The position numbers and the translations under genes were made by a program. A DNA stretch of 38,768 nucleotides from positions 1 to 38,768 of the forward strand of contig RBNJ01000156.1 in the NCBI GenBank assembly GCA_003990765.1. Direction: 5' to 3'. Every line of letters begins with the position of its first letter. The stretch's first letter is position 1. The notes beneath the pieces are model-generated. The model saw only the letters and a program-made list of their open reading frames with translations, made no database searches and was not told the DNA's origin. Shown here in pieces: positions 1-38,268 of the stretch. The DNA is from Jimgerdemannia flammicorona. Lineage: Eukaryota.

Positions 1-249
1 TGTTTTTTGAGAGCTTTCTGCCTTCTTTCCTGGTAGATTTTCTTGATTCTATTGATGCACTGGTAGTAATCATCAATATGTTTCATATAGTACATCTTGA
101 TTCTGTGGGGGCCAGTGATATATATCCTTCAATAATCTTTTTATATTATTCTTCTTTACTGATCCATTTGACTTTCTTCTTCTTTTTCTGAGTAGTTACC
201 ATATAAGCTTCTTTTTGCTCACTTTTTCTTCCTCTATCTCAGGCAGTAC

Positions 250-620
250 TCCTTTGTTGATATTGATGGGAATTCACATCTTCTGACCTTGGTAGATAAT
301 CTACATCTTCTGGGCATTAAGATCTGGCTTTATGAAGCCACTGATTACTGATGAGGATGTCATAGCTGGTATTATTAGTTATGATCACATCTACTGAGAT
401 AGTTGCTCCTCTAAACTTGATGGGAATATCTCATATCTTTCCTAGAGATGTGGCTCTTATACTATCTACTGTGATGAACACTAATTTGATTGCTTCTTCA
501 ACCTCTCAACCTAGGTGGTCTGCTGCTTTCTTACTGAAAAGGCATTCTCCTGCTTCAGTGTCAATGATGGTCTCAAAGATTCTATCTTCAATTTGACAGA
601 TTATATAGGTAGAGGCTTGC
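250..620 (-). pseudogene. Retroviral-type aspartic protease relic of the gypsy element
   Basis: Minus-strand translation IEDRIFETIIDTEAGECLFSKKAADHLG*EVEEAIKLVFITVDSIRATSLGKI*DIPIKFRGATISVDVII; DTE is a mutated D-T-G active site. Confidence 0.85.
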
Positions 621-679
621 AATTATCTTCACTCTCTTCTCTAGAGTCTTCTTGAACATTGTTGGTCTCAGTTATCTTC

Positions 680-2223
680 TATTCTTTTATTATCAATTAT
701 CAACCAATCTATATTATATTAATATAAAGACACTAATGTACCTTTCACTCAATCCCATATGGACTCCTTAACCCCCCTCCCTCCCCCCCCCTTCTGAGAG
801 TCACCAACCCCCCAGCAATTCCAACTCTCCTCTTACTCTTCTTGCAGATACTTTCTACAAGTCTTCTATAGCCTCCCCTACCAAGTCCCCACCCCTGCCA
901 CCACTCATTCAAAATGTCTATCAATAGCCACTCTCATCTCACAACTCTTACCCCAACTACTAACTGCTGACCATCCTCAAATACATAGAGCCAATGTCTG
1001 GTCAGCCTAATCCAGATGGCCAGAGCCTACCCTAAAGTCAGCCACTCATCTCCAACACCTTTTACTAATCTCTGCTGAAGATTACCCCACCTCTTCCCCT
1101 CCCCTCTCTCTAAAGATTGCAGCCCCAATTGGTCCTCAATAACCTGCTAGTAATCTCTCAGAACCTTGCACTTTCCAAGCCAATGCTTAGGGGTCTGCAC
1201 TATACTCCCCTTCTGCCCAACATTCAGATACTCTTTACACTCCACTATACCCCCTTTCACCAAGTGTCCTGACTGGTAGTTCAGCATGATATTACACCTC
1301 AAAATCCACCACTATACCACCCAGAACTTGGGGGGGAGCCATCTTGCCACCTGCTTACACTAAGACCAGACCCCATTTCAGTTCTACTCTTTACCAATCT
1401 CTACCCCCTGCTATGCTTCAGACCACAAATCTCTTCTATACTCCTACAAATATTCCATATCATCTTCTAGTTGAAAATCCTCCATCAGTATATCTCCTAA
1501 CAGTAGGCAGTCCCATCTCTATATCTGTGGTCCCCATTTCTCCTCCCCCTCATCACCTCTCTACCAGAGACCAATATGGTGGGCACTCTTCACCACTCCC
1601 CACCAGAATCTCTTATAGCACATCTTCTTACTTCCTTCAAGAGTCACTAGAGAGAGCAGGTCACCAGTTGTATTTCAGAGAGAGTGCCAAGTCTCCCACA
1701 CTCTCTGCATAAGGAGCACCCACTTTTAATCTCTCAATTTGCTTATCTGCCTCAACCACCATACTCTCAGACAGTGCAGATGCTGGTAAAGTCCACTAAG
1801 CTAAGTTCACCTCTGTCTACTAGCAGTGTCAACAAGCTGATCTGGCTCCTCTGGCCTGCCCAAATCTATGACCTGGCCATCTTCAACAGTCTTTTGACCA
1901 CCTATGTCAGGAAGTCCAAGTGATACCCAACATACTATAGCTTCAGCAGTCAGTATATATTCAGCACCATCACTCTCTCTATCAGAGAGATGTACTGACC
2001 TCTCTATTCCACAAAAACATTTCTCCAAACTCATATACCAAAAATTAGATCCCTAAGTAGCAGACTGTCTCACCAGCTGAGACCAATATCACCTCCAACT
2101 ATTCCTCCACCTAGAACCAGAGTCTCATACTTATGTCAATTGAGCCTGACACCCAAACATCTCTCATATCATTCTACTGTACTCCTCAGTACTACTATAT
2201 TCTCTACAGAGCCCAGCTCAATA
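680..2223. mobile_element. ~1.54 kb unclassified insertion nested between gypsy gag and protease
   Basis: Flanked by direct repeat TTATCTTC (672-679 and 2224-2231); the related gypsy copy has the uninterrupted site once (CTATCTTC, 13539-13546); C-rich plus strand, CpG-free. Confidence 0.7.
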
Positions 2224-2329
2224 TTATCTTCCATCCTTGTTCCTTAATTGTCTCAGTAAGTTCATATCTCATTTGTTATCTGAATGTGGGTATTTCTGCT
2301 AGCTGACCTAAGGTTACATTGACCTTTTG

Positions 2330-3510
2330 TTAACTGAGGTCCTTAAAGATATTATACTTGAAAGTCTTGGTCTTGTGAAGCTTCTTCTCCTTTTCTCTTT
2401 CATTAGCTAGGATAGTTCCTTGAATGATATCTTGAACAGTTTGTTCCAACTCTATATCTTGATCTGTTTCTTCAGATTTTTTTTCTATAGCAGTTTCTAT
2501 CTGTTTTTCCACAGAGTTCTTCTTGGGTCTTCCTGGCAGTCTTTTGTAGGATTGCTTGTGGACATCCTTCTTGACAGTCTCAGTAGAGTAGACTTTCCAT
2601 TATTCTTCATCTAATTCTTCAATCTTCTCAAAGATGATAGTATTGATCTGTTTCTTATTTTAAGTAGTATTACTTGGCTGGACCTTGTGTTTGATTTCAC
2701 TCATATATTTATATGAGTAGTAGTCTTCTTCTCTATAGGTGTAGCAGATATCTCTCTTCTTATCTGAGGTGGTGACAAACTTCTGAACCAGGTGGTGATC
2801 TCTTCCTCTAATTTCTTTTACCATATCTTCTAGATGGACTGTCATTTTGGTAAACTTCTTGACAAGTTCCTCCATTGGGTCACTGTTTCTCTACTACTCA
2901 GTTGCTCTTGGCTGAGGTGTGCTTCAATTGATCACTATAGTAGAGATTATGCTAGTTATCTTAGGTGCTTTGATTCTGACTCTAGTAACTCTTTCTATTA
3001 TATAGTCTTGTAGATATCTGACTATCTAATATCACTGGGTATAGGTAATCTTTTGTACTAAATTCAAGACTACTAGTGATGAGCAGATGGCTAGAGCTAT
3101 CTCTGAATGGACTCTTTTCATAAAGGTTGTCTTAGCTACTTGATCTCTGATGGTGGCAGTATAATCTGCAAAAATTATCTAATATTGGATTCTGGTATAG
3201 AATGTATTTGAATTCTTGCTCATTTCTTGACATATTGTATTGAACTGATTCTTCAGGACTTGCTTGATCTCATCTATATAGTAGGTGGTTTGGAGCCAAG
3301 CCTTCTATACTGCTAGCATGGTATTGTCATTATTTCTTATATAGATTGTAGCTGTAAATACTACTCTTGCTAGTCCTTAGAGACTAAAGGATATGAGGAC
3401 TACTTGCTGTACTGCTGTCAGAGTCCTTATAGCAGCATACTGCTCAAAATAATCAATGAAGATAATGGTTGATTTATTTGAGATATATCTGTAGAATACT
3501 GATAGTCTCA
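2330..3510 (-). pseudogene. gag relic with decayed CCHC zinc knuckle
   Basis: ORF fragments 2330-2512 and 2660-2875; ICYTYREEDYYSYKY fits CX2CX4HX4C after C->Y, G->D, H->Y, C->Y changes. Confidence 0.75.
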
Positions 3511-3612
3511 TATCTATCTTATCTAGATGTCTTGATTTGATTTGTATAGTTGTTCAGATGGTAGCAGTTATTTATTGTTCAGCTTAAAAGTGAGAAATTT
3601 ATCTTGAATTAT

Positions 3613-4108: not shown

Positions 4109-7100
4109 ACATATTCAGTTGTTCGGTTACCTACTGTCGAATCGAAGTGAATTCGCAAGCTATTTTCCGCGGCCATGTGAAGCAACGCATTGTTAATCAA
4201 ATATAATGCCGGACGATTTCAACCCACAATGCTTTCGTTTCGGAAGAACCCATGATTGTTGCCGACTCGGTGGCACCTTCGGCATCAACTTTCACAAGGC
4301 CGTTAGGAAAATAATGAATCAATTTATGAGAACGCAGTGTCCTTTTAAACTTTGACGAAAACAATTACCTTTTGTTTCCTTTGAGGTAAAAGACTTCGCC
4401 CGCTGAAGAGAAAAATCCCAAATCACGCTTTGGGATTTTGCGTTCACAGCACTCCCATATTAAAGACCATGGGCATACAATATGCGTTGGTGCCGAGAGC
4501 CGAGTAGAGAAAAGACTGTGAGAAAGCTTTTTTTTTTTTTTTTTTTAGGTTCTGTTCCGGCATACGCATTACAAAACAAGATCGCAGTAATCATATTTAA
4601 CTGCTTTAGCATATTTCTCAAAAAATTTCTGCAAAGCACAATTACAATAGATCAACTTCACCGGCTCTTATTCGCCAATTGTCGCAAGAAATTCAGAATC
4701 ATGGGATACTCTATGCAAGGATATAGTAATAAACGGGCTTCTCAAATTGTAATGGCGTGGTTGATAACGGGAAAATTGCCGATGGGTAAATGCTTTTTGA
4801 GGATCGAAATTTTGCGATGAAGCGTATATACAATGTTTAAATCGGTTTAACGTCGTTGATTTCGACAGCTATATATATATAATACATCACGATGACGAAC
4901 GCGACTGCGGTTTGAGCGTCACGCCGTTTAGGTGAGATAAGATAATCATGATATTTCAAATAATACAGGTGTAAATAAGCAATAATGAACTCCTACCTAT
5001 ATAATATAGTCATTAATTTTACCTTAATTGTAAGAATTAGTATACTGCTTTCGAATGTGGGATCGACATATTAAGTGATAAAAATAAGTCTGGATATTAT
5101 AGTAGTGAAAAAAACGAAGATCAATGAATTAGCTGTTATGATATTTTTGACCACTTTCGAAGAAAGATATGGGATATGGTTTTCAGACTGACTACATAAA
5201 TTTTTTTTTGTGGATCCTCACCCTGAAAATTTATTTGAGCGACCTGTCCGCCAAGCTCTATCGCAAAAAGTAATTTTAGTCAATTTAATTACGATTTGGC
5301 AATTTTTCCATAAGTATGCATGCTCTAGGTTGGAGAACGCACTTACAAAGTTGCACGTGAGTATTATTCTACGCTGGAGAGGAGAATTTCGGGATAGGCG
5401 TCGGTTTAATAACACATACAAGAAATTTTACTTTTTTTTGTGTTTGGGATTGGAACTATGAATATAATCCAGATAAATGGCCTCCATTATGTTTTCAAGT
5501 AAAGGTAAAAAGAAATAGATCATACCCAATCGTTACATGATTCGCATAGCAACAACTGTATATACGTAAATAATGGGACCATACAATTATAACGTTCAAG
5601 CTCTAAATTCTCATACCCATACAACAAGGCCTACTGCTCCGGTCTATCAAGCCCAGGAAAGGCTCCCATACTCATGCTGTTAATAAAGCTACTTATAACC
5701 GGTCGTTCGGTATGATGTAATGTCACTGTCGTGAACGAAACACACGACTCCTCCTGTTTTTACGACCCATCAACATCGGCTAGTTTACCAAAAGAGGTGC
5801 ATGAATCGCCAGGCTGAACATACCAATCATTTTTGGAGGTGTTACTGTATACATATTCAGTTGTACAGTTACCTACTGTCGAATCGAAGTGAATTCACAA
5901 GTTATTGTCCGCGGCTATGTGAAGCAACACATTGTTAATCAAATACATTGCCGGACGATTTCCACCTTTCGTTTCGGCAGAACCTCATGAATGTTGCGGC
6001 GCCTTCGGCATCAGCTTTCACACGACCGTTAGGAAAATGATAAATCGATTTTATGAGAATACAATGTCTTTTACACTTTGATGATAGCAATTATATTTTG
6101 TTTCCTTTGAGGTAAAAGACTTCGCCCGCTGAAGAAAAAAGTCCCAAATCACGCTTTGGATTTTCAGTTCACAGCACTTCCAAATTTAAAGGTCATCACG
6201 GGAAGAGGAAACTGATTAGATTCTATATTTGCAAAGATATATTTTAAACATATATGTATTATAAATATAAAATGCGATATTCAATTGGTAGCTGCATTAT
6301 CTGATAGCTGGTGCCGGCTAGAGAAAGGTTATGAGAAAGCTTTTTTATTTTATTTTATTTTTTTTAAGTTCTGTTACGGTATATGCATGACAAAAACAGG
6401 ATCGCAATAATCCTTGACTGCTTTAGCATACATGTCGTTTACCCTATTTCTCAAAAATATCTGCAAAGAACAATTACGATAGTTCACCGGCTCTTATTCG
6501 CCAATTGTCACAAGAAATTCAGAACCATGGGATACCCGATGCGCGGATATGGTAATAAATGGTGGGGCAAAAGGGGTGTGAAAGAAACTTGCAAATTGTA
6601 ATGTGGTTGATAACGGGAAAATTATATATGTATAATTGCCAATGGGTAAATGTTTTTTGAGGATCGAAACTTTGCAGTGTTTGAATCAGTTTAACGTAGC
6701 TATCTATAAAAATATATTTGGAAATGGTGGCGTGATTACCAGGAAAAAAAAGTATTGCACCGTCGCGATGACGATGAACGCGACTGTGAGCGTGACTTAA
6801 ATCGTTTAAGTGAGATTTCTTCATTCATTTAATCTTAATTGTAAGAATACTATATTGCTTTCGAATGTGGGATCGACATGTGGATTGATAAAATGAGCCT
6901 GGATATCATGGTTGCGGAAGAAAGTAATGGATAAGATCAAAATAAATAACGGCTGGATGGAGATAATTTCACACAAAAGAAGACCAATGAATTAGCTATT
7001 ACGCTATTATTGACCATTATATATTTTTTTCTGGATCTTCACTCTGGAAATTGATTCGAGCGACCTGTCCGCCATGCTCTGTCGCAAAAAATAATTTTAG

Positions 7101-7810
7101 TCGATTTACGATTGGACAAGTATGGTCCTTTTATTTTTATCGCACTTGCAAAATAAATGTATCAGTAAAAATTCGGATTGGAGAACGCACTCGTAAAGTT
7201 GCACGCGGGTATTTTTCTGAATTACGTTTCTTTTTGCGTTTTGAATTTGGATTATGATTCACTCTTATGGTACAAAAGGGTCATTTCGGATATCGTAGAA
7301 ATAAATAGCTTTTATTATATCTGCAAAAAAAGTGAAGAACATCAAATAAATGGAGTTGATTGCCCGAAGCAACAACTGTACGTAAATAATGGGACTACAC
7401 TTATAATGTCTAAGTATCATTTGGTATGACGTAATGTCACTGTCACGAGAGAGTGGCAGGATGTTTCCACGACCATCAGTATCGGCTAGTTTACCAAACG
7501 AGATTGCCAGGCTGAACTTTTTGGTGTTACTGTATACACATAGTTACCTACTATCGAATCGAAGTGGCTTCTCAAGTTATTTTACTTGTCACTATTGAAG
7601 CAACACATTATTAATCAAATACAATGCCTGACAATTTCCACCCACAATTCGATTCGGCGGCGCCTTCGGCATCAGATATCACGCGGCCGTAAGGAATATA
7701 ATGCAACATAATTCACGATAACACAATGTCTTTTAAACTTAATTATCCTTTATTTTATTTGAGGTAAAGGACTTCGCATGTGCAGCTCGCTTAGGAGAAA
7801 GATCCCAAAA
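4109..7810. repeat. Diverged tandem array of a ~1.7 kb non-coding unit: 4109-5850, 5851-7535 and partial 7536-~7810
   Basis: Collinear shared blocks, e.g. GTTACCTACTRTCGAATCGAAGTG and TTTGAGGTAAARGACTTCGC in all three copies; CTTTCGAATGTGGGATCGACAT and CGGCTAGTTTACCAAA in copies 1 and 2. Confidence 0.92.
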
Positions 7811-7977
7811 CAGTACGCGCACATCCCGTGATAATATCTGTTTCTTTCTACTTTACTTTGATTTTGGAATACCTTTTCCTTCGGAAGGGCCACTAAATTC
7901 GCTACTCAAAACGGAAAAAGGTATCAAAGTGATTTAATTCGTTTTCCAACACAAACTCGGTAATAGAAGGCGTTGTC

Positions 7978-7980: not shown

Positions 7981-8030
<50 letters not shown>

Positions 8031-8033
8031 AAA
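7981..8033. repeat. T30 immediately followed by A23 (self-complementary homopolymer pair)
   Basis: Read directly from the sequence. Confidence 0.9.
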
Positions 8034-12362: not shown

Positions 12363-12404
<42 letters not shown>

Positions 12405-12506: not shown

Positions 12507-12579
12507 GGTGACCACTTTTAAAAAGTTAGTTCTTAGTCATACTAAGCCACCAGAGGTAACATTTTAAAAAGTGGCCACC
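12507..12579. repeat. Imperfect 22-23 bp inverted repeat with inner hairpin
   Basis: GGTGACCACTTTTAAAAAGTTA (12507-12528) versus TAACATTTTAAAAAGTGGCCACC (12557-12579); inner CTTAGT-CAT-ACTAAG. Confidence 0.6.
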
Positions 12580-12599
12580 AGGCAATTGGTCGGCTAGTA

Positions 12600-13758
12600 T
12601 TCTTTTAGTATATGTACAGTCATTTTGTAGTTATTACTTAGTTTCATTATATTCTTAAATTCTTACTTATATTATATTCTTTCTTATATATTATCTTATT
12701 GAGTAAGAATGCTGAAATTATTATATCTTAATAATTTGTAACTTATATATAACTATATTATTCTTAATTATATTACTGATTCTAATATATAAATATATAC
12801 TATTCAGAATAATAAACAATGCTCTTCTTTACTCTTTCTCTAGTATCTACTCCATATTCACATCATTTTCTTCTCTTTATAACAAATTTTATAGATTTTA
12901 ATAATATACTAATAATAATAATTAATATACTTTATATAGTCTATAGTATCCTATATGAATAGATTTCTTATAGTATATATTTTTAGATAATTTTCTAATA
13001 TCAATCTTCTTCACTAATCTATCTGATCTTCTTTTTCTTTTTTTGTATAGTTATTATAAAGACTTCATCTTATTTACTATTTTCTTTCTCTATATCAGAA
13101 AGTACTCCTTTGTTGATATTGATTGAAATTCACATCTTTTGTCCATAGTAGACAATTTATATCTTCTGGACATTTATATCAATTATAGCTCTAACTTTAT
13201 AAAATTACTAATTACTAATGAGAATATTAGAGTTAATAGTATTAGTCATAATTACATCTACCAGAATAGTTACTTCTCTAAACTTGATAGAAATATCTTA
13301 AATCTTTCTCAGAGAGGTGGCTCTTATACTATCTATTATAATAAATACTAATTATATAACTTCTTTGATTTCTCAATCTCAGCAGTTTACTGCTTTCTTA
13401 CTAAAAAGATATTCTTCTACTTTAGTATCAATAATAGTCTCAAGATACTGTCTTTGATCTGGTAGGTAGTATATATAGAGATCTTACAATTAACTTCACT
13501 CTCTTTATCAGAGTTTTCTTGAGTATTATTGGCTTCCACTATCTTCCAGCCTTGATCCTTAACTATTTCAGTAAGTCTGAGTCTCTTTTATTATCTAAAG
13601 ATAGAAATTTCTATTAGCTATCTAAAGGTAGTATTGATATTTTATTAACTAAGATCCTTAAAGATGTTATACTTAAGAATCTTACTCTTTTATAGCTTTT
13701 TCTTTTCTTCTTTACTAATAGAGAAAGTATCTTAAATGATATCTTTAACTACTTGTTT
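12600..13758 (-). mobile_element. Heavily AT-shifted relic of the same gypsy family (end of gag, protease and downstream)
   Basis: ~13080-13545 aligns with ~225-680 and ~13540-13758 aligns with ~2225-2450; left boundary approximate. Confidence 0.85.
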
Positions 13759-14150
13759 GAGCTGAAAAAGAATATGAATCCTATAAGTTAGAATGTCTTG
13801 CAGTCATCTGGGCTGTAGAAAAGTTCCACTACTACCTTGTCAGAAGACACTTCATCATCCAGATGGACCATTCAGCCCTCACCTAGCTGCTGACCACTGG
13901 ACAACCCAAAGGAATCTATATCAGATGGATTATGAAGTTGCAAGCCTATGACATAACCATCATACACTGCTCTGGAAGAACTAATGCCAATGTAGATGCC
14001 CTCTCACAGACACCCCAAAGGACCCCAACCAGCAAATCAACCATGAATAAGGAACTCTACTATGGAATTATCACCTACCTGGGACAGTGAAAGATGCCCC
14101 AACATCTGGAAGAATGGACACAAATGATTATCAACAGAACAAGGATCCTT
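13759..14150 (+). pseudogene. Ty3/gypsy RNase H fragment
   Basis: AEKEYESYKLECLAVIWAVEKFHYYLVRRHFIIQMDHSALT*LL...RWIMKLQAYDITIIHCSGRTNANVDALSQ matches the gypsy RNase H motif pattern. Confidence 0.9.
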
Positions 14151-15118
14151 GTCATCTCACACATAACCCAATTCATATGCTCGAGTCGAATCAGTTTTAG
14201 TTTTGGTCCCATATACTGGACACACTCAGTATCCCAGTTTCAATGCTGCATGTATCCGTAGGTATATTAGACTCATATTTACATTATGTCCACTTAACAA
14301 CTTGGCAACTTAGTCGTTGCGATCAATCACTTTTGGTCATGCAATAAATGGCCTTTTCGCGTACTCAACGCGAATGGCGGTTCTGTATGCATCCAACCAA
14401 GCCAAACACACTTACACTCCTTTCAAGCCTCCACCACGCGAAGGGTCACTTTGATGTTGGTTTACCACTGACACTGCCGTATCGCGAATCCCATATTCAT
14501 TTTACACGATTGCCACATTTATTCTAATTTCCATTAGCAAGCGCAATGATTCCTAGGTGTACACTTGCTGTTAAAGTTTCTGTACACCGAGTTTTTGCCT
14601 TACATTTATTGTCCCGTCCCAAACAGAACAAATGACATGAACAAAAAATTGCTTGGCCCGGTAATACTTTTTCTGAGTACTTAGCTCCACCGTGCCCTCC
14701 TTCTTGGCGCTTGCGAATCATCCCGCTGCCACAAGACCGAATTAAGTGAACACTTATCTTCCTATTTCGACGTCAATGAAGCGTTGCTGTACGTTTGGTT
14801 ATCTGTGGGTTTCTGGCTCGTAGAACTGCGACCCCCTTGGTTTCGTTAGGGGGTATTTGAAACCGACGGTAATGTCCTATTAATCGATGCATATTCCTGT
14901 AATTATTCGGAGAGGACACCATGGAACGTAACAGCTCGAAAATTTCGATGAGATTTAAACTAGATATGGGGAGTGCGAGAAAAACAAATGAAAAGGTTGT
15001 ATATGATTTTGAGGTAAGGAGCGACTAACCAAGGTCTACGGCTACAAAGTGTGGCTACAACTCGTTCCAAAAAACCATCTTTAGGTGTCAAGTTGTCGTC
15101 TCGTAAAAAACGAAATAG

Positions 15119-19217: not shown

Positions 19218-22200
19218 TCAGGCTGAGACAATGGCAGCAACCTGGGCGGTGGACGGGTCAAGGCCGAATGCAAGATTGTAAGGAGGAGGTGTTGTGTCCT
19301 GTGAAAGAGTCTTCGCCAAAGAGGATTTAACCATGACGACTTGGTCAACATTTTTGTGGGAGGAAGCGAGACGTTGAGGGTTACTATCAGTAGTCGGATC
19401 TTGCGTGGGGTGATGAAACGTTTCTTGAGCGACCGATAATCTAAGTGACGAGTTTTGGGAGTGGGGAGTCGTTGCATTCCCCTCCTCTCCGATGCTATTC
19501 TGTGACAGATTTAATCTATTGAGAGTTTCGTTGGTTTCAAGTACTTTTGCGCCCTCATCCCCGATATCGTTCAATGACATATCCAACCAGATGAGGGTTC
19601 TGTTGGCTTCGAGGGCCTTTGCGATGGCTTTTGCACCCGCCTCCCCGATGTTGTTTGATGACAGATCCAATAAAATGAGAGGGCTGTTGATTTTGAGAGC
19701 CTTTGCAACGGTTTTTGCTCCCTCCTCTCTGATATTATTTGAGCTTAGATATAATGTAGTGTGAGTTTTGTACTCCCTGATGTCATCCAACAACTTATCC
19801 AATGAGGTGAGAATCTTTTTGGTTTTGAGAAACTTCGCAACGTCCTTTGCGTCCTCCTCCTCGATGTTATCTGACCGTATATCTAATGAGGTGAGAACTT
19901 TGTTTTCTTTAAGGGCATTCTTGACAGCGTTAGAGCACTCCTCCCCGATGTTATTCGACGACAAATACAATGTAGTGATGGTTATGTTGGTTTCGAGAGC
20001 CTTTGCGATGGCCATTGCGCCTTCCCCCCGATGTTATTTGACCGCAGATCTAATGAGGTGAGAGTTTTGTTGGCTTTGAGAGCGTTTGCAACAGCCCTTT
20101 GCGCCCTCGTCCCCAATATATTGGAACGAAAGATCCAATGAGCTTAGAGGAAGATGGATGGCGTGAATCCACGCCGGAGAAACGGAATCACACCCTCGAA
20201 GATCAACCTGTTTTAAAGATGGTTGAATCAAGAGCAAGGCTATATCAAGAGTATTCAAGCCACTGTCGTTGGTCAGGATCACCTCTATCAATCTCGCGGT
20301 GTCCAGTTGAAGATGCCTAAGAATAGGACAGTCGGGCAGATCCAGCCGTTCAAGTAAGGGGGCATGAAGCTGAATCTCCTGCAGATTGGCGCATTATTTC
20401 ATTACCAGACGTTTGAGAGATGGAAATTCCGTTGGAGAGACCTGAGATGGTGTAACTTTGAGAGACGCGGCAGATTTTATCCAGGACGACTTTTTGACAT
20501 TGGCCACAAGGGTAAGTTGCGGGCAGCAACTCAAGTACTCCAAAGCTATACCACAGGCTTTATGAAGTGCTTTAAATCCAGAATTGTTGAAGGCTTGGGC
20601 GCCATGTAGATCGACACTGGTCAAGTGGTGTCTGCGGCCTTGGAACGCTAAGGTGTTGAAATGTTCTCTGGTAAGATAGCGGCTGTTGATAAATTCCAAA
20701 CTTGTGTGAGGGAGCTCGTCAGAGAAGAGGTCTTTGAGGAGCTTTTTTTCGACCTCTGGAGTTTGGATAGACATATCCCACCTCTTGTTTAGCACCCACT
20801 CTCCATGTAAACGCCTCACCAGAGCCTCGTTTTCGGCTTGAATATTTCGGCGCAAGACCTGAAATCTCTCTAAAGCATGCTGTCTATTGTGGTCTGCAAT
20901 GAACGGATAGATGTCAACCTTCAGAATCCTCAGCATCTCTTTGGTATTGATTGAAGAAATAGGGACACTTGTATTGCGGCGTCGATAGAGATCGTTAGTC
21001 ACCGTGCAAAATCTGTCCTTTAATGTTAGCCTTTGATTGAGAACTTGGCCGTAGCTCTTGGCAACATAGGGCTCGAGCTTTCTCAGGAGTTCAATATGGG
21101 TAAGTTGTGGGTTTTGCAAAACCTCCTTTTGCAAACGATGAGCCTTGCAATAAAGATTTTCCATAGAGAGTAAAGGCAGTGGAAGGTGTAAGACTGTGCC
21201 TTTGTTGAACAGTTGTTGTAGTCGATCCTCGGTGAAAAGGCTTTGATAAGCCACGTCAACAGTTTCCAGCTCTTTCATCCAAGTGGTTAAAAATTCGTCG
21301 ATCTCTAATGTGCGAATCTGCTCCCTTACAACTGAAGGCAGCGGATCACACATCTGTGATAAACAGAAAGCCAAGGTTTTGGCTTGCAACTGGGGGACTA
21401 CATTAAAGAAAGTGCCAGCACCTTTGCCTTCATAAAGCACGCCGGGCAGAAAAGCATGGTCGTTGTCAATCGGAATGAGGCGTTCGTTATCAGCGCTGAG
21501 GATAAAGTTGTCTTCCTTGCTGCCTTCAGGGTTGAGCTGCATGGAGGTGACAATAAATCGGCTGGTGAACACTGGATCTAGGTGAGAAAAGATGTTGTCG
21601 TTGTCCCAGATTGTATGAAAAACCTTGCCTCTAACAGCTTGGCTTATGAGGACGGGATAGGAGCCGTTCATGGGGTCATGAAATACAAAGAGCTCGCAAA
21701 ACGGTATTTCTTGAGGATCCCAGCCACGTAAGAAGTGGGCGACGGCATATTCGTAACCTGGAAGTTCCGGATAGGCTTTGAAGTAGAGCTTGGGAATATC
21801 TTGGGGATAAAAGGTAACGGTACTGCGTCCCTTGAGCGTTGTGTCGCCTTGAAATTTTCCCTAGGCGCCTGCTGAGGTCCGGGCTAAGGTGACGCTCGCC
21901 CAGAAATGCGCCTTTTACATTCAACGAAAGTACGCCCCCCGGAGCAGGGCCACGCGGTAAGGCTTGGGTGATAGTGAGGCGCCATGCGAGTTTAGGATTG
22001 TGCGGCAGGAAGAAGTCAAGCATCTGGGCCGACGACAGTGCGACGTCGGCGCCATATTGGAATGAATGGTTTCGCAGGTGTTGTTGGGCCTCTTACAGAG
22101 GTTTACGGCGAGCTCGGAACTGTTGATATGGAGGAAGCCCTCGTTTTATATGAGGTGGAGGTCTTGAAACAGGCGGTCGAAGATAAAAACGTTTGCAGAA

Positions 22201-23289
22201 AATTGATGCCTGTAGCTCTCTAAGACTTGATCAGCCATGCTAATTTTGAGCTGGGGGAAAAATATCTCTTTGAAAAGCAGGGTCTTCGCTCTGTTCTTGA
22301 GAGGTGGCCAATTGCAGTCATTGCCTCACGGTTGTGCCATCGGGGAGATTCGAACTTTCGTTGAGTGAAATAACTGTCGCATCTCCATGATAGAGGTGAT
22401 CGAGAGCCTCCGCAGGTGACCGCAATTTTTTTCGGAGTTCGGCGTAATAGTAACCAAGCAAGGGATCGATCGTATTGAAGATATTTTGGGAAGTTGTAAC
22501 CGGGATTGCCAACGCTTGCTTGAGCTTCTCGAGTATCCGGCCCAGTGTTTGAGGCATTTTGAGGGGTAAATCCAGGTCTTTCCAGAACTCGTCTACTTTC
22601 TCTGTGGCCAAAGGCGGGTGACGATAGGTTAAGGTCGAAAGCAAATTCTTTTCGAGAATTGAATAGTTTTGATTCTTGAGTATCAAGGTATTGACCCAGG
22701 CCAAGAGGACGGCTTCCCGCACTAGGTTTTCGAAGACGATGCGAGTTTTTTGGGGAATGGCAGTCCATCAGGGGTAAGAGGTAGAGGAGGGATTTGTTGT
22801 TGATGTAGCCGTGCTTAATACCAGGAGCGAACACTTCCTCATTATCAATGCTGACAAGACTGCATGTGGAGGCCTCGTAGACGAAGTTGTCAGATTTGCT
22901 GTCGGATGGTTGCGTGAGCAAAGCACCGATGACTATAGATCGGGATTAAGAGCGATCAAGACGTCCTTTCCCTCGTCCTCCATTTGCAGGATCTCTTCCC
23001 AGGAATCCGGCATGAGTGTTTCGGGTGACTTGGGACCGTCTTTGAAAAGTGAATTCCATAGACCCCGTAACCCATCGTCCGTTTGAACATGATGCCAAAG
23101 GGTTTCGAAGAGGGCGTAGTGGACCTGGCGTGGAACATCAGGGTCTGCTTGGGTGACATCGAGGATTTTGTGGGTCAAGGCGTTGGGGTTGGGCGCAGTG
23201 GACTCTGGGGATAAAACCCCAAATAAGCGAGCCTGATCTTCAGGTGTAAGGTGCTGTTGGGCACGGGACTCTCGCTCTTCATGATTCAT
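19218..23289 (-). pseudogene. Disrupted, intronless tandem atypical-kinase (PI3/4-kinase-like) plus LRR protein gene
   Basis: Module 1: IGALLTQPSDSKSDNF...LVSIDNEEVF; module 2: LYFKAYPELPGYEYAV...YPVLISQAVRG...NPEGSKEDNF...LIPIDNDHAF; Cys-type LRRs then ~28-aa RNI-like LRRs (LxxLDLSSNNIGEAGAKAIAKALEAN); at least seven frameshifts or stops (~22935, ~22760, ~22320, ~21862, 20394, ~20098, ~20025). Confidence 0.8.
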
Positions 23290-25654
23290 GGTGTAGTGCG
23301 GTCAAACGTACAAGGACGATCATTGAAAACGAAATGTCCGTGGACTGCTTCGCCTAATAATGAACATCCGAAGGCCGAGTCCAAATTCGGAATGAAAATT
23401 GGCGATGTACAACGTTTCGTGCATATGTTTATAGAATGTTGTCATCACATGAATCATGCAAATCGAAAAAATGGCTGAAGAGTACATAAATGACGTCTAT
23501 GTCTGTGGCTCTCCCAAGAGGGACTCACCCAGATAGGTTACGATAATGGCATTGACTGTATTGGGAAAATATTATTTTTACTCACCTCTGCAACTATCCA
23601 CGTCTTCAATTTGTTGGCGGTAACAAGCACCCTACAAACTCGGTATATACGGTACGGAAAGTGTCGAGGCAGGCACGGAGCTCTTGGCCGCAACTTGTTC
23701 GAAGCCAACATTTTCTGCTTGGCGATCTGTGCCAGATTTCGCTGTGTCACCTGAAAATCCTTGGAATAGGTCATTTGACAACACGACCGTCAAGCAGGAT
23801 CATTGAGCAGGTCTACCTCTGTTCCCAGAAGGCGAACATACAGGGGTATTACTCGTGCCATTTTTTGACGAGGGGGAGAAGCGGAAGGTTTGGAAAGGTG
23901 TGAGTCTTAATTCCTGAACTCTGAACGTTGCATTCTCTCTGTTTCCCTGGCAAGCCTCGCCATTCAACTTTACGCTCAAGGTGATAGGAAAGGTTGCAAA
24001 TGGTAGTTTGGTGGAGTCGGTTTTTATTTACTATTATTATCATTATCTGGGGCGGAGTGTATCAAAGAGAAGAAGAAAGGAGTGAGTGGGTAGAAGTGGA
24101 TGGAGCCAGCCGGGAATCTTGCACACCTCGCAAAACCGCATTAATGCCGCCTTTGTCCTCCATCCATCGAACCGTAGGCATTCGAAAAATCTGACTGGCT
24201 CTATCCCGAACAACGCCGCTCTCTCCATCATCGCCAATCGATAACTAGTCAATGTCGTGTCCTACGCCTATTTAAATATTTTGGTGAATACAGGTAGGAG
24301 GAGCAGGGCGGACATCGTGGCATCGGCAGGGGCGGGAGTTATGGCCGAGGATGGGGTTAGCATGGACGAGTTAGCGTGGGGTCCGAATCGGCCAAACTCA
24401 ACACCATGACGAAAGCCTTCGCTCTTGTAGCAAACGCAATCGTCATCACGTACCTTACCATTATCACCAACAGCATTCAGGGATGTAATAATCTTTTGAA
24501 CAAGGTCAGATGTGCAGAGAGGGATATGTATCGGGCGGTCGCGGGGTGGGATAGTATGGTCATCGTAGAATGGAGCGTGGTAAAGGGGTCGAGGGCTGTG
24601 TTAGCGCCGTTGAGAGTTTTGTGAAGGTGATGTGGTTAAAGAAACGTAGAAGGCAGGGATATTATATCACCGTATATTGTGTCTTTTTAAATAAACATGA
24701 TGTGTTCTTTGCTTTCCATCATTGGCTGCATCCCACCCGAACCTGAATCTGAACCTGCATTTATATCTGTACCCATATGGGTGGTAAGTCAACGTCATCA
24801 TCCCTCTCTCCAGACCACCCAAATCGTTCGCTCATATTTCTACCCTTTCACCTTCTACGTTCCCACAAAGGGTGGCCCCCGCCCGGCTTTGCCAAAACGA
24901 TGGCTGGTCGCCTGATCGCGCAGAAGACGCGCTTCCATTTTGTGCGACAGCAGGCGTGAAGCGGGCGTTTTCAACATTTTCGACGTGGCTCTCACCACCA
25001 TTTGTGATCTAAAACGACTCGTATACACCGAAGATATTAGTGGCGCGTTCGTGAATGAGGAAAAATCAGTGCTACTACATAGAAAATTCTTGAATATTAC
25101 GGTGAAACGATCATGTAATGGACGAGAATAGATATGGCCCAAAGGGCGTAATTCACTTCATTTCCTTCAATACTGACGACTCCAATTCGGCGATTAAATG
25201 GCTTGCGCGGTAGTCGGTGAGGATCCGCCGAATGTCGTATAGCGGTAAATCATGGCCGTCTTTATTTATTTCGAATTGACGGATCAACTCCTTCGCGAGT
25301 AAGCCCTAAATGCGTAACTGCCAGAGACGACTTTCTGGATCTGATGCGTCGTAGGGTCGAGATCTCTGCTGCAGGTTTGAAAATGAGCTTGGTCGATAGC
25401 TGGTGATGGTTGATGATGGTTGGGTATTCAACGGTCAAATTGGGCTTGCGCACTCCACGACATGGAAAATCACCACAACACTCGCCAGACGCCAGACCAT
25501 CACCCACATCGCTTTTTTCGGTGTCACCATCACCAAGTGAGTAATTCGTGACGCCATCATTCCCATTTCTATAAATTCCTTACTTCTTTTTCCCTTCCGC
25601 TCACCCCTCTTATTCCACATCAACCGACCACCTCACTTCCAAACTCAACCCATC

Positions 25655-27806: not shown

Positions 27807-28432
27807 GTGTTGAAATCAATAACCCTTGGGAGTTTTATATATTTTTTATTTTTATCCTAATTCTCACGCAGAAATCCATTAGAACGAGTAAAATTAATCC
27901 GATTAAAGGCATTGATGCATTTTCCAATGGAAAAAATAAAAATGCGTCATGTATTGCCAGTAATTACATAATATTGGATATGGTGGCGGTGGTAGAAAGA
28001 AAGACATTTTAGCATGGCTTCAATATAGCCAAAGATGATGAGCCAAATCAGGTACATTTCTGTTGATCAGATTAGTTGTAGCCATGTAAGGATGGGGTGC
28101 GAAAAAGGCTGAGCAAGAAGCGAAAGTCGGCAAGGGCAGAAACTGGTCGGCTATTATCTGCTCGAACAGAATGAGCTTCATCACGATGCATAAATTTTTC
28201 TCACTGTATCTCTTTAATATTACCACCTTCTCTATTTCTCATTACTCTGTGAATCGCACCCAACGCTGTTTGTTCCTTTCCTATGGCTTTGGAACGCCAA
28301 CACCAACCTAATCGCAGTTAATGTAATTACATTGATTTCAGTTTATTTATAAGGACGACTGCAACAGGTCACAAGTCACTGCGCCACAGTTTATGTATCC
28401 TCGAATCAACCCCATCAAAGGTGTAATCAAAC

Positions 28433-29930
28433 ATGGACATGAAATCCAACAGTGGTCTTAACCTCAAGAACGACATCGCCGCCCTATGGAAAGACACAGC
28501 TTACCACGACGTAAGCATCGTCTGCGCTGATGACGTCGAGCTTGGCGCTTGCCGTGCTGTATTGGCTGCAAGGTGTGTTCGATTGTTTTCCGATTGTGTT
28601 TCATGAGGTTATAGATCTATCTCATATCGTATGGTTCCAAAGATCCCCCGTCTTCAAGGCAATGTTGTACGGAAACATGAAAGAGAGCGTCTCCCAGCGA
28701 GTCGTCCTCCACGACATCAACTCTGCAGCGCTCACCACCGTCCTCGGCTTTATCTACACCGAATCGATCGATGACACCACCGTCACCATTGCGGTGGACG
28801 TCTACCGCGCAGCGAGCTTCCTTCTCCTCCCAAAACTCATGGCAATGGTGCTGGAGCGTGCCCAAGACATTTCCGACTTTGGCGTCTCCTCGTCTCTCCT
28901 CAACGAGGCCGCCGCCTCCATCCCATGGAGTGAGGCCAGCAAGGACCTCTACGCCGTGCTGCTCAAGCCTTTCTACACTCGAAATCTCGCCGTAGGAGAG
29001 TTGACAGACCTCTCCAAAGAGGCTATCGAGCTATTCTTTACTGCACCCTTGGCGACTACTTTCGTTACTTCCGAACACGACCTGCTTCTGTGTGTCGTCG
29101 ACTGGGTCTGGGCGCATTCCGATGAGCCGGGACCCGATGTTACGGAGCGTCATGACGTCTTGCGTGATGTTGCCCGTATGGTTCCGGGATGTGAGGGCAA
29201 GATTCGTCTAGGAAATGACTCGTTGCTAAACATGATGAAGCATGTGGACCTCACCCTTGTGTGCCCGCATCGCCTTAAGACCCTCACGGAGGCGGTCGAT
29301 GGGTTTGCCAATTCGTCTCCGCACTACATGGCCTTTTGTTACCACGCATGCAAGAACACTATGTGCCTAATGGGGCATCCGTCCGGGTATCGTGCAAAGG
29401 ATCTCCAGTGGGATCGATCCAAGGTCGGTTCGCGCGTTGTCGTTTCAGATAACGGCAAGGTCGTGGAGCTTTCTGTCGCGGAGCTTTCTGTCGGTACGCC
29501 AGCGCCCGTGGGCCAGACGGCGCGGATCTCCGTCCCCGGGACAACGACCGTGGACGGACTATGCGAATGGGACATTGTGGTCGAGTCCGTTGGATTATAT
29601 AAATCTGAGCCCATCAGTGTGATCGGATTGGTGAGCGAGGATTTCGCTGACTTTAATTCCTACTCGAACACCAAGGGACTGCCATGGAGGTTCGAGTCTT
29701 GGAAGAACAACTATCGAAAGTTAATTGGGTCGAGAGAAACTCGCGACTATGGCGTCATTCTTCGGAGTGGCGATGTAGTAACTTTGCATCTGGATAAAGC
29801 CAAGCATACTTGCGCCTTTTCCATCAATGGAATTAACCAAGGGATTGCATGGACCGACCTTCCAGAGAAGGTGTACCCTGCCGTGACTTTGTGTGCACAA
29901 TCCAAGTATCGGATAAAAGATCGTTTTTAA
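28433..29930 (+). CDS. BTB/POZ plus SPRY domain protein, join(28433..28572,28643..29930), 475 aa
   Basis: Splicing restores BTB signature YHDVSIVCADDVELGACRAVLAAR|SPVFKAMLYGNMKES...VLGFIYTE; C-terminal SPRY GDVVTLHLDKAKHTCAFSINGINQGIAWTDLPEKVYPAVTL. Confidence 0.92.
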
Positions 29931-30500: not shown

Positions 30501-33049
30501 CATCACAGTCTCACGAGCTGTCTCAGCGAGACTGACCGGGAAACCGGAGTGCTTCTAACACAGATCATGCGATGCAGCTTGTAGAGCTTGAGATTTCATT
30601 CGAGGGCCAGAGCCGTATGCAGAAGGCACCACCCAAATGGGGGTCCGAATGAGGGTCCGGAATGATGTGTTGAACTGTTTAAAATGATCAAAGTTATCTT
30701 CTCTGAGTTCACAGATGCGGTTGCATGAGGAACGTTTTTAGTTTTAATCCCCCAGAAGAGTCAGCAAAGTAGAATAGCCTGAAGGCTCCTTTCATTTCTT
30801 TAATAATAATCTTAATATTATATATAGTATATAAATACAATGTACAATTTGAATAAATTTATATTCAATAGTTTTTAAGCATTATTAAAAAATATATATA
30901 TATATATATCTTCTCAATTTATCTATATATATATCTATTATAAAAAAAGAGCTTCATGTAGATGAGATCTGATGATCTCTGAAATATTTTTCACAAAATA
31001 TAATTAGAAAAAACACTCACTAGAAAGAGTTTTCCAGCTAAATTGTTTGGTGCTTAAAGTATCATCTGGAAGCAAAATAATAACAATATGAGAATTGTAA
31101 ATTATTTTCAGAGAAATATTTCCCTCTCTAGTGCAAAACCTATAGCACATAGCCAAAATCCTCCAAACCAGTTTGCCTGTTCAATTCGGATATTGGGTGA
31201 GTATGCTGAGAGTATTATATTCTCTGAACAGAGTGCCATCCAGCTCCCCTCTATCAGGATGAGTGACACGGAATTGACTTGTCCAGTCTCGATCTTAACA
31301 AGAGAATGTGATATTGCCATTTGGATAATTGGACAATAACAGAACTAATCAGAGTTATGAACATAGTTCAAACTGCGGCAAAGTCCCTGAGGTGGGAGGA
31401 GTCTAGAACAGTCTGTTTCAGTACATATAGTGTAGTTTCAGCTAGGGCTTCAGCCTGTTTCAGTTTACCCAACCATAGTATACTTAGTTAGTACAATTCA
31501 GGGGCACCTTTATTTGCTGCAGGGCAGCACACTCCACCCCTCATCATCTAGCTGAACAATAGGCTGAACAATAGTTTAGCATCAGTACTTCGCATACTAT
31601 TAGTCTCTAGTAGTAGCTCCCAAGCTGTTTTCGCATACATGCCCTCTATATACCATTCTTAAGGTATTCAGCTGGCACTTGTGCTGGCTCCACCTTATGC
31701 ATGCTCACCAATCCCAAATATGGCTGGCTTACATGCATCGCAGAAGGAGTATCTCATTGCATTCTGCTGCAAATACAAGTTACCTGCTGATGGCACTAAA
31801 AACATATTGATTACACAGCTTGAAGACTCTTATCTATTGTTTGTTCCAGTGCCTCAGATCAGTTCACCTATAGATAACACATTAATTGAGCACCTTCTCC
31901 CTACTATCATAGCATGCCTTACAGGCAACCCTCCCTCAGTCCTGACACCTACACCTCCAGTCTTCTCCTCCATGGTACCATTCAGCCCAGCTCTAGATGG
32001 TCTAAACTCCATCATCCCACTTTTAGCCCTTTCTCTTGGTCTACAGGCCTCTGCCATATCAGTGCCATATGGTGAGTTTCAGTCATCCTTTGTTTCTGAC
32101 ATGGTTTTATGATACAACTGAGTACTGGCAGATCTTCTGGCCTCCCTTGATGCAGGGGATTATCAAATCCAAATGGACAGACTCTGCACTGCTCTCACAG
32201 GTCAACACTAAGTGGAAAATAGATAACTCCCTACCTGATCATGACCTCAACTTCCTCTTCTGGCTTGAGGCCCTCTTTAATATTTGTGGTGTACTGCTGG
32301 CCCTTGGGGCTACAAAGTCTGTAACCTATATAGTATATGCAGCCCAGCTCTTAGCCTACATCATCTTCATCATTAAAGTCATCAATAACCACTATAACTG
32401 AGCTGTATTATAGTGTTTTGACCACCAGGTCCATACCTTGAAGGCTTCCTTCCCAGAGCTAGACATTGGCAATCCAGAGGTAGTGTGGCATATCTTCAAG
32501 ATGGTCATCAGTCAACCAGCATCCACCCCAGTAGCATATCAATCAAATCGCTACATCAATTCTGCTACCTTGCCTACTAGCTCCAAAAACTCATCCATAT
32601 GATCTCTTCTGTACTTTCAGTGTGGAGTGCAGGGACATTTGTCTACTTCCTGCACCCAAGCACCTCTCCAATACCCAGTATTTCCTGCCAAACTGGATGA
32701 CTCCTTGTCCTATGATGGTGTCCCCAGCTCTATCTGCTGAAACTTCAATAGCTATAGCTGTCACAGTAACTACAGCAGATCCCACATCTGCATTTTCTGC
32801 TATGAGCCCTATATAGTCACAGCATGTCCTGCTCACTATGGCTAATTTGGCTATCCCTCTACTAGCTTCCAACCCTCACATTCCTTACTACTTGGAGGCT
32901 TGGTGTAATACCTTATGCACTCATCTGAACCAATCGCTAGTTCAGTATCATCTAGCTGGCCTTCAATGCAGCTACTTCTATGGCAACCATTCAAATCCAG
33001 AACTCCACATCGACCTTCTATCCAACAACCTCCTTTCAGCCTTCATCCA

Positions 33050-34400
33050 TCAGACAGTTCTTTCTGACAACATTTTGACCAAACTGGCTGCTAAGTAGTA
33101 CCTTGGCCCCTTTATATCACTCTCCACTCTTCCCCCCAAATTCTGTCCCTTTCACAATACCCTCCTAGGTATCATCTCCAAGAAAAACTCCACCAAATTC
33201 CATATGATCTAACACTTATCATTCCCTGAGAGTACCTCTATTAATGATGGTATTGACCCTGAGGAGTTCTCCATTCAGTATCAATCTATACAAGAAATTA
33301 TCCAGATTCTTATTTTCATTGGCTCCACTGCCCTCTTCTGGAAGGCAGATATCACTAATGTATTTCAAACCATTCCAGTCAATTGAGTTGATTGGGCCAT
33401 ACAGAGCATCTGTTGGCTTGGTCTGTTCTTCCTCAATATATACCTCCCATTTGGCTTATGCTCTATTCTCTTCATTTTCACCTTGCTCATAGACCTCTTT
33501 ATATGAATATGCTACCAGTTGTATAACCTTCTCAATTTGGGACATTTGTCAATAATTTCATCTATATGTCACAGGCAGCACATACTCATATGACATATGC
33601 CTGCTTCTACATAGTCACTGACCAGTTTGGCCTTCTGCTTAAGCTGCTCAAGGATGTCCCTCTCTCTCTAATTATTGAATATATAGGTTTTCTACTAGAT
33701 ACTTCCAATATGACCATCAGCCTTCCTGTAGACAAATGTGAGTGCATCCTCACTATTCTGGCAGACTGGCTCATCCTCTTGGAAAAGTCACACAGCTCTC
33801 ACCTATGATCATACCATGAGGCCCAGTCATTACAGGGCTATTTAATGCATATTGTCCAGGTCTTATCTGATAGAAAAATATTCTGTGACTCTATTATTTA
33901 CTTCATGGCAGTGTGGAAGCCCCTATATACCAGGTGCCACCACCTGCCTAATTGCCTTATTGCCAACTTACTTTGGTAGCAGAATATACTATGCTTGTAG
34001 ATAGGCCATCACCTGCTTTTCTACTCTGACTGGCTCAACTGTGGCTTTTTTACAGACACATCAGACTCACTTGGTACTAGTGCTTGGTTTGGCCAGTGCT
34101 GGTAGAGTGCTCATTGGGTCCCATCATTCTCTGGTCTGGGTAGATATGATATCTTCTGAAAGAGAATGTTCACTATTTGAGTCTTGCTCATACTTTGGGG
34201 CCCATCATTCCACTCTCATCAGATCATCCTATGGTGTGATAGCCAACCTTGTATCAAATCTTTGACCAGTGACCACACCCCTCACTATCTTGTTAATAAT
34301 TTCCTTCATCGGATTGTCATCCTTCATCTTGAATTCAGCTTTGATATTCAAGCCAGGTATATCCCTTTAGAGTCTAACCCCACCAATTCCCTGTCTTATT
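33050..34400 (+). pseudogene. RT and RNase H relic of the DIRS/Ngaro element
   Basis: LGIISKKNSTKFHMI*HLSFPESTSINDGID...FWKADITNVFQTIPV...YLPFGLCS; decayed YxDD (GTC AAT AAT TTC at ~33548); IEYIGFLLDTSNMTISLP; RNase H FTDTS and ILWCDSQPCI. Confidence 0.85.
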
Positions 34401-34479
34401 TTGTATATCTCCCAACCCATCTACAGAATCTGCTCCCACCTCAGATATCATCTCTCTTTGGCTTTATAATTGATTCAAA

Positions 34480-35373
34480 GCCTGCTTGTATCAATATGCC
34501 CATACCTGCACTGGCAGTCTCTACCCAGGGATCAACTCTCTTCTCTGGTTTCTTGACTCCTGTCACATCCCTGAGCAGGCAGTCTTCCCTTTGACTGATG
34601 ACCTCCTCAGTTACTGGACACTGTGGGTAGCCAATGACAAGAAGTCCCATATAATAATAAAGAACTACTTCTATGACCTAGCTGCTTACCAGGTGGCCCA
34701 CTGGCAGGGCTCTACCCTATAATGCACTAACCTACCTCTGTTTGATGTAGTCCTAAAGAACATTGCTGCCAACCCCCTCCTTGATGTCCCATCACTCAAA
34801 TGCCTTCCTATTATCCACCAACATCTCTGGTGCATCTGTCTTTGCTTATGTCTTAACACTCCACCCAGTGCCACAGTCTGGGCTATTACATATACAGCCT
34901 TCTATGGCCTCATGAGAATAGGTAAATTAATGATCTGAGATGGTTAGGTTTTTAATCCATCCTGGCAAGTTTGCTATCATCATCTTTAATGCTGCTAGGA
35001 CTCTACTCTTGCCTGCCCATTTTGGTCAATTTACCTACCTTGCATGAAGATGGGCTCTGCTGGTGAGGTGTTCCTGGAGTTTTCCAGGGCTTTTGATTGC
35101 CCTTGCTCAGTGATTGATAATATGGTTTGGGTCATTTTGACTCAACCGGATGAACCCACCTTTTGTCTTGGGTCCGCGCAGCCATTGTTTCATATGAGCT
35201 TTATCAATACCATTTGATCCACTTTATCTGGCTTGGCTCTTGCATCAGGGATCCATAGTCATTCCTTCCATATTGGTGGTGCCACTCTGCTGGCTTCCAC
35301 TGGTTACCTTGACCATATCATCCAATTGGCTGGCCACTGGAAGTTCTCCATCTTTTTGTGCTACATTCGGTAA
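34480..35373 (+). pseudogene. Tyrosine recombinase relic
   Basis: AFYGLMRIGKL (catalytic R) and SHSFHIGGATLLASTG...IQLAGHWKFSIFLCYIR (decayed H-x-x-R, W, Y). Confidence 0.88.
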
Positions 35374-38064: not shown

Positions 38065-38268
38065 TGGTTCCCGTATGTTTTGGTTTATGGTTTGTTCGCC
38101 TCAAGTCACCTCGCCCTCAGTCATGTGATTGTATCCATGTTATCATTTTATGTCCACTGATGTCATATAGAAGCCCTCAAGCACGTTATGTATATTAATT
38201 TCACGTGTTTCAAAATTTACGTTTCCGAGTAGTGACACTGACAGAAAATTACGCACAATCTATAAACC

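Follow-up and report, generated by a model that had tools for sequence, protein, structure and literature searches.

Repeats and genes of the window

The window analysed here is the whole 38,768-nucleotide stretch of contig RBNJ01000156.1 of Jimgerdemannia flammicorona (Mucoromycota, Endogonales), and relatives of its sequences were sought in the genome assembly of 231 Mb, which is fragmented into 35354 contigs. It carries two copies, A and B, of one retroelement family, together with other repeats that are poor in or free of CpG, and several genes (Table 1). The A/B family reads as Ty3-type, judging by its knuckle, a weak aspartyl protease and, next in order, reverse transcriptase (RT) flanking other copies, where RT-like matches lie beside the protease part, and in copy A they would lie past the window edge.

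Table 1. Positions of repeats, genes and control regions in the window.
Feature	Position	Strand	Basis or remark
Copy A, protease part	1-679	-	Asp_protease E 5.7e-4, RVP_2 E 2.3e-3, both below the curated cut-off
Nested insertion, CpG-free repeat family F3	680-2223		Missing from other copies of the copy A family
Gag part of copy A, CCHC knuckle (2705-2752) decayed	2224-3600	-	Adjoins 1-679 in other copies
Non-coding local tandem duplications, CpG intact (small control)	4109-7812	+	Unique to this place in the assembly
CpG-free block with sharp edges	12592-14181		Flanking CpG at 12591 and 14182
AT-rich CpG-free remnant outside the A/B family	12596-12868		GC content; match to L011
Copy B, old, strongly decayed Ty3-type gag-protease relic	12869-13763	-	Family alignment
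RNase H fragment of a different LTR retroelement, CpG-free	13770-14100	+	Translation across stops matches Pfam RT_RNaseH, E 5.6e-16
LRR-bearing long gene region, apparently split into several frames	19218-23300	-	Internal LRR array at 19480-20150; two paralogs (L115, L116) at 73-76%; CpG somewhat low (395 vs 498 expected)
BTB-SPRY gene (negative control)	28430-29930	+	Pfam BTB and SPRY
F2, younger CpG-poor repeat	31187-35147	+	6 near-full copies at 83-85%
SET-domain gene, 100% match to P0001 of Jimgerdemannia flammicorona	36760-38100

Within the CpG-free block, positions 12600-12854 have a GC content of 0.19, and only 12596-12671 of the AT-rich remnant matches a flank of one family locus (L011). 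The tblastn match of the RNase H fragment spans 13761-14009. A six-frame Pfam search of the F3 insertion gave no match, and a search of the three forward frames of F2, which we take to be DIRS-like from motifs in its translation, gave no family match. A short inverted repeat spotted by eye at 12512-12580 (ccacttttaaaa ... ttttaaaaagtgg) lies directly left of the CpG-free block. Possible retroposition tails or assembly features are a long palindrome of A/T homopolymers at 7981-8033 and a 38-base A run at 12364-12402. As the sequence-only reading of this DNA had held, the genes are unaffected and the decay is confined to repeats, the 1-kb windows that bear genes having CpG observed/expected (o/e) values of 0.69-1.40.

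Comparison of copies A and B

The sequence-only reading had compared 12600-13758 with the copy at 225-680 and described their differences as dominated by TG to TA and CA to TA. All six strings quoted in that comparison are present, at paired positions 340/13207, 469/13336 and 551/13418, with homology limited to about 12869-13763 and not extending over the whole of 12600-13758. Of the 670 columns that A and B share in the alignment of the family, 185 differ, with 111 C to T or G to A changes towards B, 33 reverse transitions and 41 transversions. Where the 3' neighbour is identical in both copies, C to T towards B is seen at 49 of 76 CpA, 12 of 17 CpC and 19 of 97 CpT sites (Fisher p=3e-9 for CpA against CpT, p=0.78 for CpA against CpC). 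CpA to TpA is indeed the biggest class of difference, but per site CpC is as heavily changed. The replacement of Cys and His codons by Tyr codons in the gag knuckle is real, and is found outside 225-680, at the minus-strand site given in Table 1, which reads DICYTYREEDYYSYKY; at the three Tyr positions of this knuckle, 22 of 23 aligned copies carry C14/Y8, H16/Y6 and C6/Y15/F1, respectively.

Copy B is 72-75% identical to all 30 loci of the family (30 returned from 40 scored among 2593 candidates), while copy A has 82-85% identity with family members. Its per-copy C to T rates are 0.69 at CpA, 0.64 at CpC and 0.28 at CpT. As its transversions (0.052 per site against a pooled 0.0089 in its relatives) are likewise about six times more frequent, a special mutation burst in this copy was rejected, and its heavier load reflects greater age or membership of a more distant subfamily.

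Context of C to T changes in old transposons

Four old sets of copies were aligned (Table 2). F1a consists of 29 loci and both window copies, F1b of the 22 of 29 loci with sufficient cover and the window copy, F2 of the six near-full among 29 non-window loci and the window copy, and F3 of 29 loci, from 5635 candidates in the assembly, and the window copy. Copies were chosen as best matches, which leaves the most mutated copies under-represented.

Table 2. CpG content and per-copy C to T rates in four old transposon sets and the gene control.
Set	Copies	CpG observed/expected	CpG retained at former sites	Ts/Tv	C to T at CpA/CpC/CpT
F1a	31	5/599	3/658	7.4	0.351/0.289/0.081
F1b	23	10/921	8/1066	7.6	0.387/0.308/0.117
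F2	7	58/943	53/1613	18.7	0.182/0.127/0.021
F3	30	5/1495	3/1534	7.0	0.328/0.234/0.094
BTB-SPRY genes	29	2984/2982			0.074/0.080/0.091

C to T changes are concentrated in repeats, as in canonical RIP (Ts/Tv 7.0-18.7 against 1.6-2.5 in the controls), with transversions at 0.004-0.010 per site in the four old sets. The earlier claim that the extra C to T reaches beyond CpG is borne out by the CpA and CpC changes. The TA share is 0.15-0.29 at former CpG sites and 0.20-0.43 at sites with CA or TA only; because true CpA sites have the larger share, TpA is not a by-product of doubly hit CpG and needs a separate non-CpG step. Within families, CpA load does not follow transversions (Spearman -0.01, -0.11 and -0.17), on counts too small to read.

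Among CpA sites of the four old sets, change is most frequent at ApCpA and least frequent at TpCpA, which may be a sequence preference of the enzyme. On the 3' side, CAT and CCT stand at or near the top rank, CCC being marginally higher in F1a and F1b; these trinucleotide counts are pairwise, and the events not independent. CAT and CCT exceed CAG and CTG, and CHG-type methylation was rejected, since CAG and CTG are not raised. The same fine context is seen in the young family described below, with ApCpA highest, TpCpA lowest or near lowest, and CAT and CCT high.

The same ranking in a young family

A young Ty3 family (L147-L176) was taken as the 30 best of 150 scored RT matches among 19832 candidates, and hence comprises the least mutated copies. 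Their mean identity is 96.5% and their CpG o/e 0.20-0.39. At codon positions 1 and 2, C to T is found at 154/1344 CpG, 114/5186 CpA, 70/4552 CpC and 29/5312 CpT sites, compared with 37/20498 for T to C and 29/35548 for transversions. The C to T rates at these positions are alike on the sense and antisense strands. An excess of TG over CA changes (524 vs 139) is located at third codon positions and is due to selection; as it vanishes at positions 1 and 2, a strand-biased process was rejected. Open frames in this family reach about 900 aa. Loss of CpG at third positions is common to several of its copies, which suggests that partly mutated copies kept transposing.

After correction for saturation, the five sets give ratios of 5.0-8.5 for CpG/CpA, 3.9-9.5 for CpA/CpT and 2.7-6.4 for CpC/CpT, with CpC at 0.7-0.8 times CpA. 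The CpG rate is 20-32 times that of CpT in four sets and 80 times in F2, and the CpA rate is 28-54 times that of transversions in repeats, as against 4 times in genes. A single process with a fixed ranking thus runs from young to old copies, and goes on after CpG has been exhausted.

Duplicated genes, strand clustering and load per copy

The BTB-SPRY control comprises 28 loci (L117-L144) and the window copy. Its CpG o/e is 1.0 overall and 0.91-1.11 in every copy, even in two with no frame longer than 152 and 180 aa, respectively, and its C to T changes show no context bias (Table 2). Of the 406 pairs in the alignment, 341 are at least 80% and six at least 90% identical, and two tandem pairs, each on the same contig, are 95.9% and 95.2% identical over 1.5 kb with CpG o/e of 0.96-1.01. 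The family has at least 45 copies, mostly single long frames, with tandem arrays on four contigs (C1049, C1290, C192 and C3781). Purifying selection could remove some hits in these genes, but not those at synonymous CpG. Canonical RIP targets duplications in general once they exceed about 400 bp and 80% identity, linked ones most, and the sparing of the BTB-SPRY tandem duplicates speaks against homology-triggered RIP. The duplications at 4109-7812 (CpG 51 vs 38 and 66 vs 47 expected) have no CpA excess, and a three-copy set of the LRR region has a flat context, both on few sites. The former consist of a non-coding unit of about 1.7 kb in two to three tandem copies.

In canonical RIP, mutations come in bursts coordinated on one strand. 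Column permutation of the four old sets gave no same-strand runs (the null equalled or exceeded the observed value in 187, 199, 136 and 155 of 200 permutations), and five of six permutation tests for same-strand excess in the young family were null, the sixth, on CpA/CpC events no more than 400 columns apart, being weakly positive (0.618 vs 0.571, 4/200), so that nine of all ten repeat tests were null. A within-copy shuffle test was dropped because it ignores local base composition and was falsely positive in the gene control (0/300). Old RIP of many rounds would blur strand clustering. Loads per copy are overdispersed in the old sets (0, 0, 2 and 0 of 200 permutations reach the observed value) and, less so, in the gene control (1/200); differences in age or in the local level of methylation, or bursts, could each by themselves explain this.

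RIP indices

The stretch 12600-13758 has a GC content of 0.23, a TpA/ApT of 1.17 and a (CpA+TpG)/(ApC+GpT) of 0.79, against 0.77 and 1.67 for these two indices at 1-679 of copy A, and the composite RIP index is +0.37 in the former and -0.89 in the latter. Genome tiles (387, from 20 stretches chosen by contig number and not at random) fall below a CpG o/e of 0.1 in 204 cases and above 0.7 in 106. A positive composite index is found in 23% of the CpG-poor tiles (o/e <0.1) and 6% of those above 0.7, and strict RIP indices in 3% of the 204 CpG-poor tiles. Because CpG decay refills CpA and TpG, copy A is negative, and a copy must be very old, as B is, to become positive; this refilling may let the pattern escape index and k-mer screens.

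DNA methyltransferases and a repair gene

Searches of the assembly with PF00145 (4 matches among 8 candidates) and TIGR00675 (6 of 6) identified three genes of the DNMT1 superfamily, on contigs C8187, C11271 and C3657 (L035, L145 and L038), and searches with P0008, P0009 and PF12047 added no further locus. Neither a RID nor a clear DNMT1 was found with these five queries, none of which is a RID sequence, in a fragmented assembly in which PF00145 missed C11271; for RID and DNMT1 alike this is weak evidence of absence. The proteins P0007 and P0008 carry DNA_methylase and DUF7893 domains with weak BAH and RFD matches, and their top PDB matches are 9baq/9bap, presumably Neurospora DIM-2, at 136 bits compared with 92 bits for DNMT1; P0009 is weakly resolved (123 vs 116 bits). 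Ten of the top 150 relatives of P0008 were named: they come from Radiomyces, Phycomyces nitens, Apophysomyces (a "Dim-2"), glomeromycetes, Basidiobolus and an ascomycete cluster that also holds a Dim-2, and one is a JGI protein called DNMT1. Mucorales proteins are among the closest, and the closest with a name is a Dim-2. PCQ and ENV motifs are intact in all three paralogs, motif IV of C11271 having been read by eye, while motif VI of RID/Masc1 is EQT or EET in the available text of PMC6709928. The three genes are DIM-2-like, with ENV and not the EQT or EET of RID. Phycomyces-type relatives have one DIM-2 and one DNMT1, in contrast to the three DIM-2-like genes found here.

The DIM-2-like gene on C8187 is expressed: it is present in spliced contigs of two RNA runs, with 15 intron-type joints listed in the first, X1, 10 of them also in X2. 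C1744, considered as RID or DNMT5, was rejected as DNMT2-like, and C58 and C2181 we take to be DNMT2 by their motifs. A gene fragment of a TDG/MUG-type glycosylase (L203, on C34337) is the only UDG-family match of two candidates; with this TDG-like gene present, loss of T:G repair as the cause of the high rate was rejected.

Origin of the mutations

The spectrum, its constancy across ages, its confinement to transposons, and the presence and splicing of a DIM-2-like gene are observed. We consider it probable (roughly 0.6) that they are the mutational footprint of steady, passive deamination of 5mC deposited by DIM-2 in transposon chromatin. DIM-2-type enzymes would methylate repeat chromatin most densely at CpG, less at CpA and CpC and almost not at CpT, and 5mC would turn to T gradually, on either strand and over many generations, mainly by deamination that is incompletely repaired. 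CpG would be lost first, decay at CpA and CpC would continue afterwards, and old copies such as 12869-13763 would become AT- and TpA-rich and RIP-like in look. Transposon identity or chromatin, and not duplication itself, would provide the targeting. In the available text on Zymoseptoria, Dim2-dependent methylation of transposable elements is 43-61% at CG, 10-22% at CA, 3-8% at CC and hardly any at CT (PMC8016269), which is the order of mutation found here, so that deamination proportional to such methylation would leave this ranking. The context match with DIM-2 would thus draw on Zymoseptoria, since Neurospora DIM-2 prefers CpT according to the part of PMC13297926 available. The sequence-only reading took deamination of 5mC to remove CpG alone, which is true only where methylation is CpG-restricted; J. 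flammicorona encodes DIM-2-like enzymes, and Dim2 in Zymoseptoria methylates CG>CA>CC>>CT. If CpT is taken as unmethylated cytosine, CpA methylation would be about a tenth to a fifth of that of CpG (from CpA at 4-5 times CpT, 9.5 times in F2).

The decay of methyl-CpG in animals is roughly 10-20-fold, and a CpG rate 20-32 or 80 times that of CpT stands at or above that level in a genome with a TDG-like gene, so that passive chemistry may be insufficient. An enzyme-driven, RID-independent mutator, in which a DIM-2 paralog, with or without the help of a deaminase, would actively turn C into T in transposon chromatin, in mitotic or premeiotic cells, would suit these very high rates (at CpA relative to transversions as well as at CpG) alongside an existing repair gene, the three paralogs with intact PCQ and ENV, the overdispersed loads and the correlation in young copies between CpG loss and CpA+CpC load (rho 0.68), neither of which follows other changes. 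Precedents are described in the available portions of PMC8016269 and 10.1101/115501, but both are strongly CpA-specific, whereas the rates here track the expected methylation ranking; bursts and strand runs are missing, and the 19832 RT candidates still include families whose open frames reach about 900-1180 aa. We therefore hold active mutation by DIM-2 to be possible but doubtful.

Classical RIP, as the RID-dependent, homology-triggered, premeiotic conversion of CpA to TpA in any duplicated DNA, combined here with CpG methylation, is very improbable. CpA to TpA is the biggest difference class and the composite index of 12600-13758 is positive, and in an assembly of 35354 contigs where PF00145 missed one true methyltransferase locus a RID could be missed. 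The CpA signature from which a RIP-like process had been proposed is nevertheless not supported when contexts are compared, CpC being changed nearly as often as CpA and CpG far more often. The RIP reading also does not agree with the unmutated same-contig gene tandems of 1.5 kb at 95-96% identity, in a family where 341 of 406 pairs reach 80%, nor with the lack of strand coordination, the ENV motif in all three candidate enzymes where EQT or EET marks RID, or the strict indices in 3% of CpG-poor tiles. A cause other than methylation, be it a general GC to AT drift in dead DNA, errors of reverse transcription, or a deaminase that attacks transposon RNA or single-stranded transposon DNA, would fit C to T being about threefold over T to C even at CpT, and CpT rates up to 2-3 times those of the gene control in old families. 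The strong context ranking, missing from both controls, the equal sense and antisense rates at codon positions 1-2, and the origin by selection of the third-position TG excess make it just as improbable as RIP.

Relation to known systems

The comparisons in this section draw on partial texts of the cited sources. Zymoseptoria resembles J. flammicorona in repeat-confined C to T, a DIM-2-type enzyme, and a methylation order that equals the mutation order here. Mitotic Dim2 mutation there puts >98% of C to T at CA and spares CG (PMC8016269), whereas here CpG is the top target and fastest class and CpC is close to CpA; Zymoseptoria also has rid, while none was found in J. flammicorona, and belongs to a different phylum. 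The DIM-5/HP1/DIM-2 branch of Neurospora RIP (10.1101/115501) is similar in acting on C to T independently of RID, through DIM-2 and heterochromatin, and differs in being premeiotic, homology-triggered, very CpA-biased, flank-spreading and triggered by tandem arrays; here, in contrast, genes duplicated in tandem escape and the CpG-free block ends sharply. RID-dependent RIP in Pezizomycotina likewise leaves old repeats AT- and TpA-rich with Cys and His codons turned to Tyr (PMC12543289, PMC6709928), but differs from the pattern here in context, targeting, strand pattern and enzyme complement, and J. flammicorona differs from it in its large repeat-rich genome and young open-frame families.

In Basidiomycota, where decay of transposable elements is linked to Masc2/DNMT1-type enzymes, CpG is also the main target and methylation followed by deamination has been proposed, without the strong added decay at CpA and CpC seen here; the same source links CpA/CpT signatures to RID-bearing ascomycetes (PMC4352252). 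Phycomyces blakesleeanus, of the same subphylum, also has DIM2, and its transposons carry 5mC (PMC11258239, PMC7862722) in the CG and CHH contexts and none in CHG; it differs in having DNMT1 as well (PMC11258239), none being found in our searches of J. flammicorona. Bigelowiella hypermutation, T to C at TpA, was set aside as unrelated.

A k-mer survey of scaffolds >50 kb, with J. flammicorona in its Table S1, reports RIP-like enrichment in ascomycetes only (PMC12543289), and PMC8647823, citing Venice 2020, gives the RIP signature as undetected in Mucoromycotina. An index-based RIP-like signal with caveats has been reported for Zoophthora radicans (PMC11105155), so that a non-Dikarya RIP-like claim is not unprecedented. 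Our search, largely outside subscription papers, found no literature that describes such a spectrum in Mucoromycota, Endogonales included.

The host indeed lies outside the Dikarya, as the sequence-only reading had supposed. What is seen there is a real, genome-wide and transposon-confined C to T process with a DIM-2-like footprint, and works like methylation-linked repeat decay and not like RIP: CpA is not the preferred context, duplicated genes are not targeted and one-strand bursts are lacking. A bolder and rather unlikely extension would be that Mucoromycota have an active, RID-independent defence in which an expanded DIM-2 set mutates transposon CpG, CpA and CpC and spares duplicated genes, that ascomycete RIP is a later specialisation of this ancestral homology-free form, and that screens miss it as CpG decay refills CpA and TpG.

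A non-Dikarya genome in which no RID was found thus has strong non-CpG C to T decay of its repeats with a DIM-2-like footprint. The pattern parts two things that are bundled in RIP, methylation-linked mutation and the sensing of homology, and explains how transposons are eroded in a repeat-rich genome alongside retained large, young gene families. The methylome of J. flammicorona is predicted to follow CG>CA>CC>>CT, and culturable Mucorales with DIM-2, such as Phycomyces, make the question of passive or active mutation testable.
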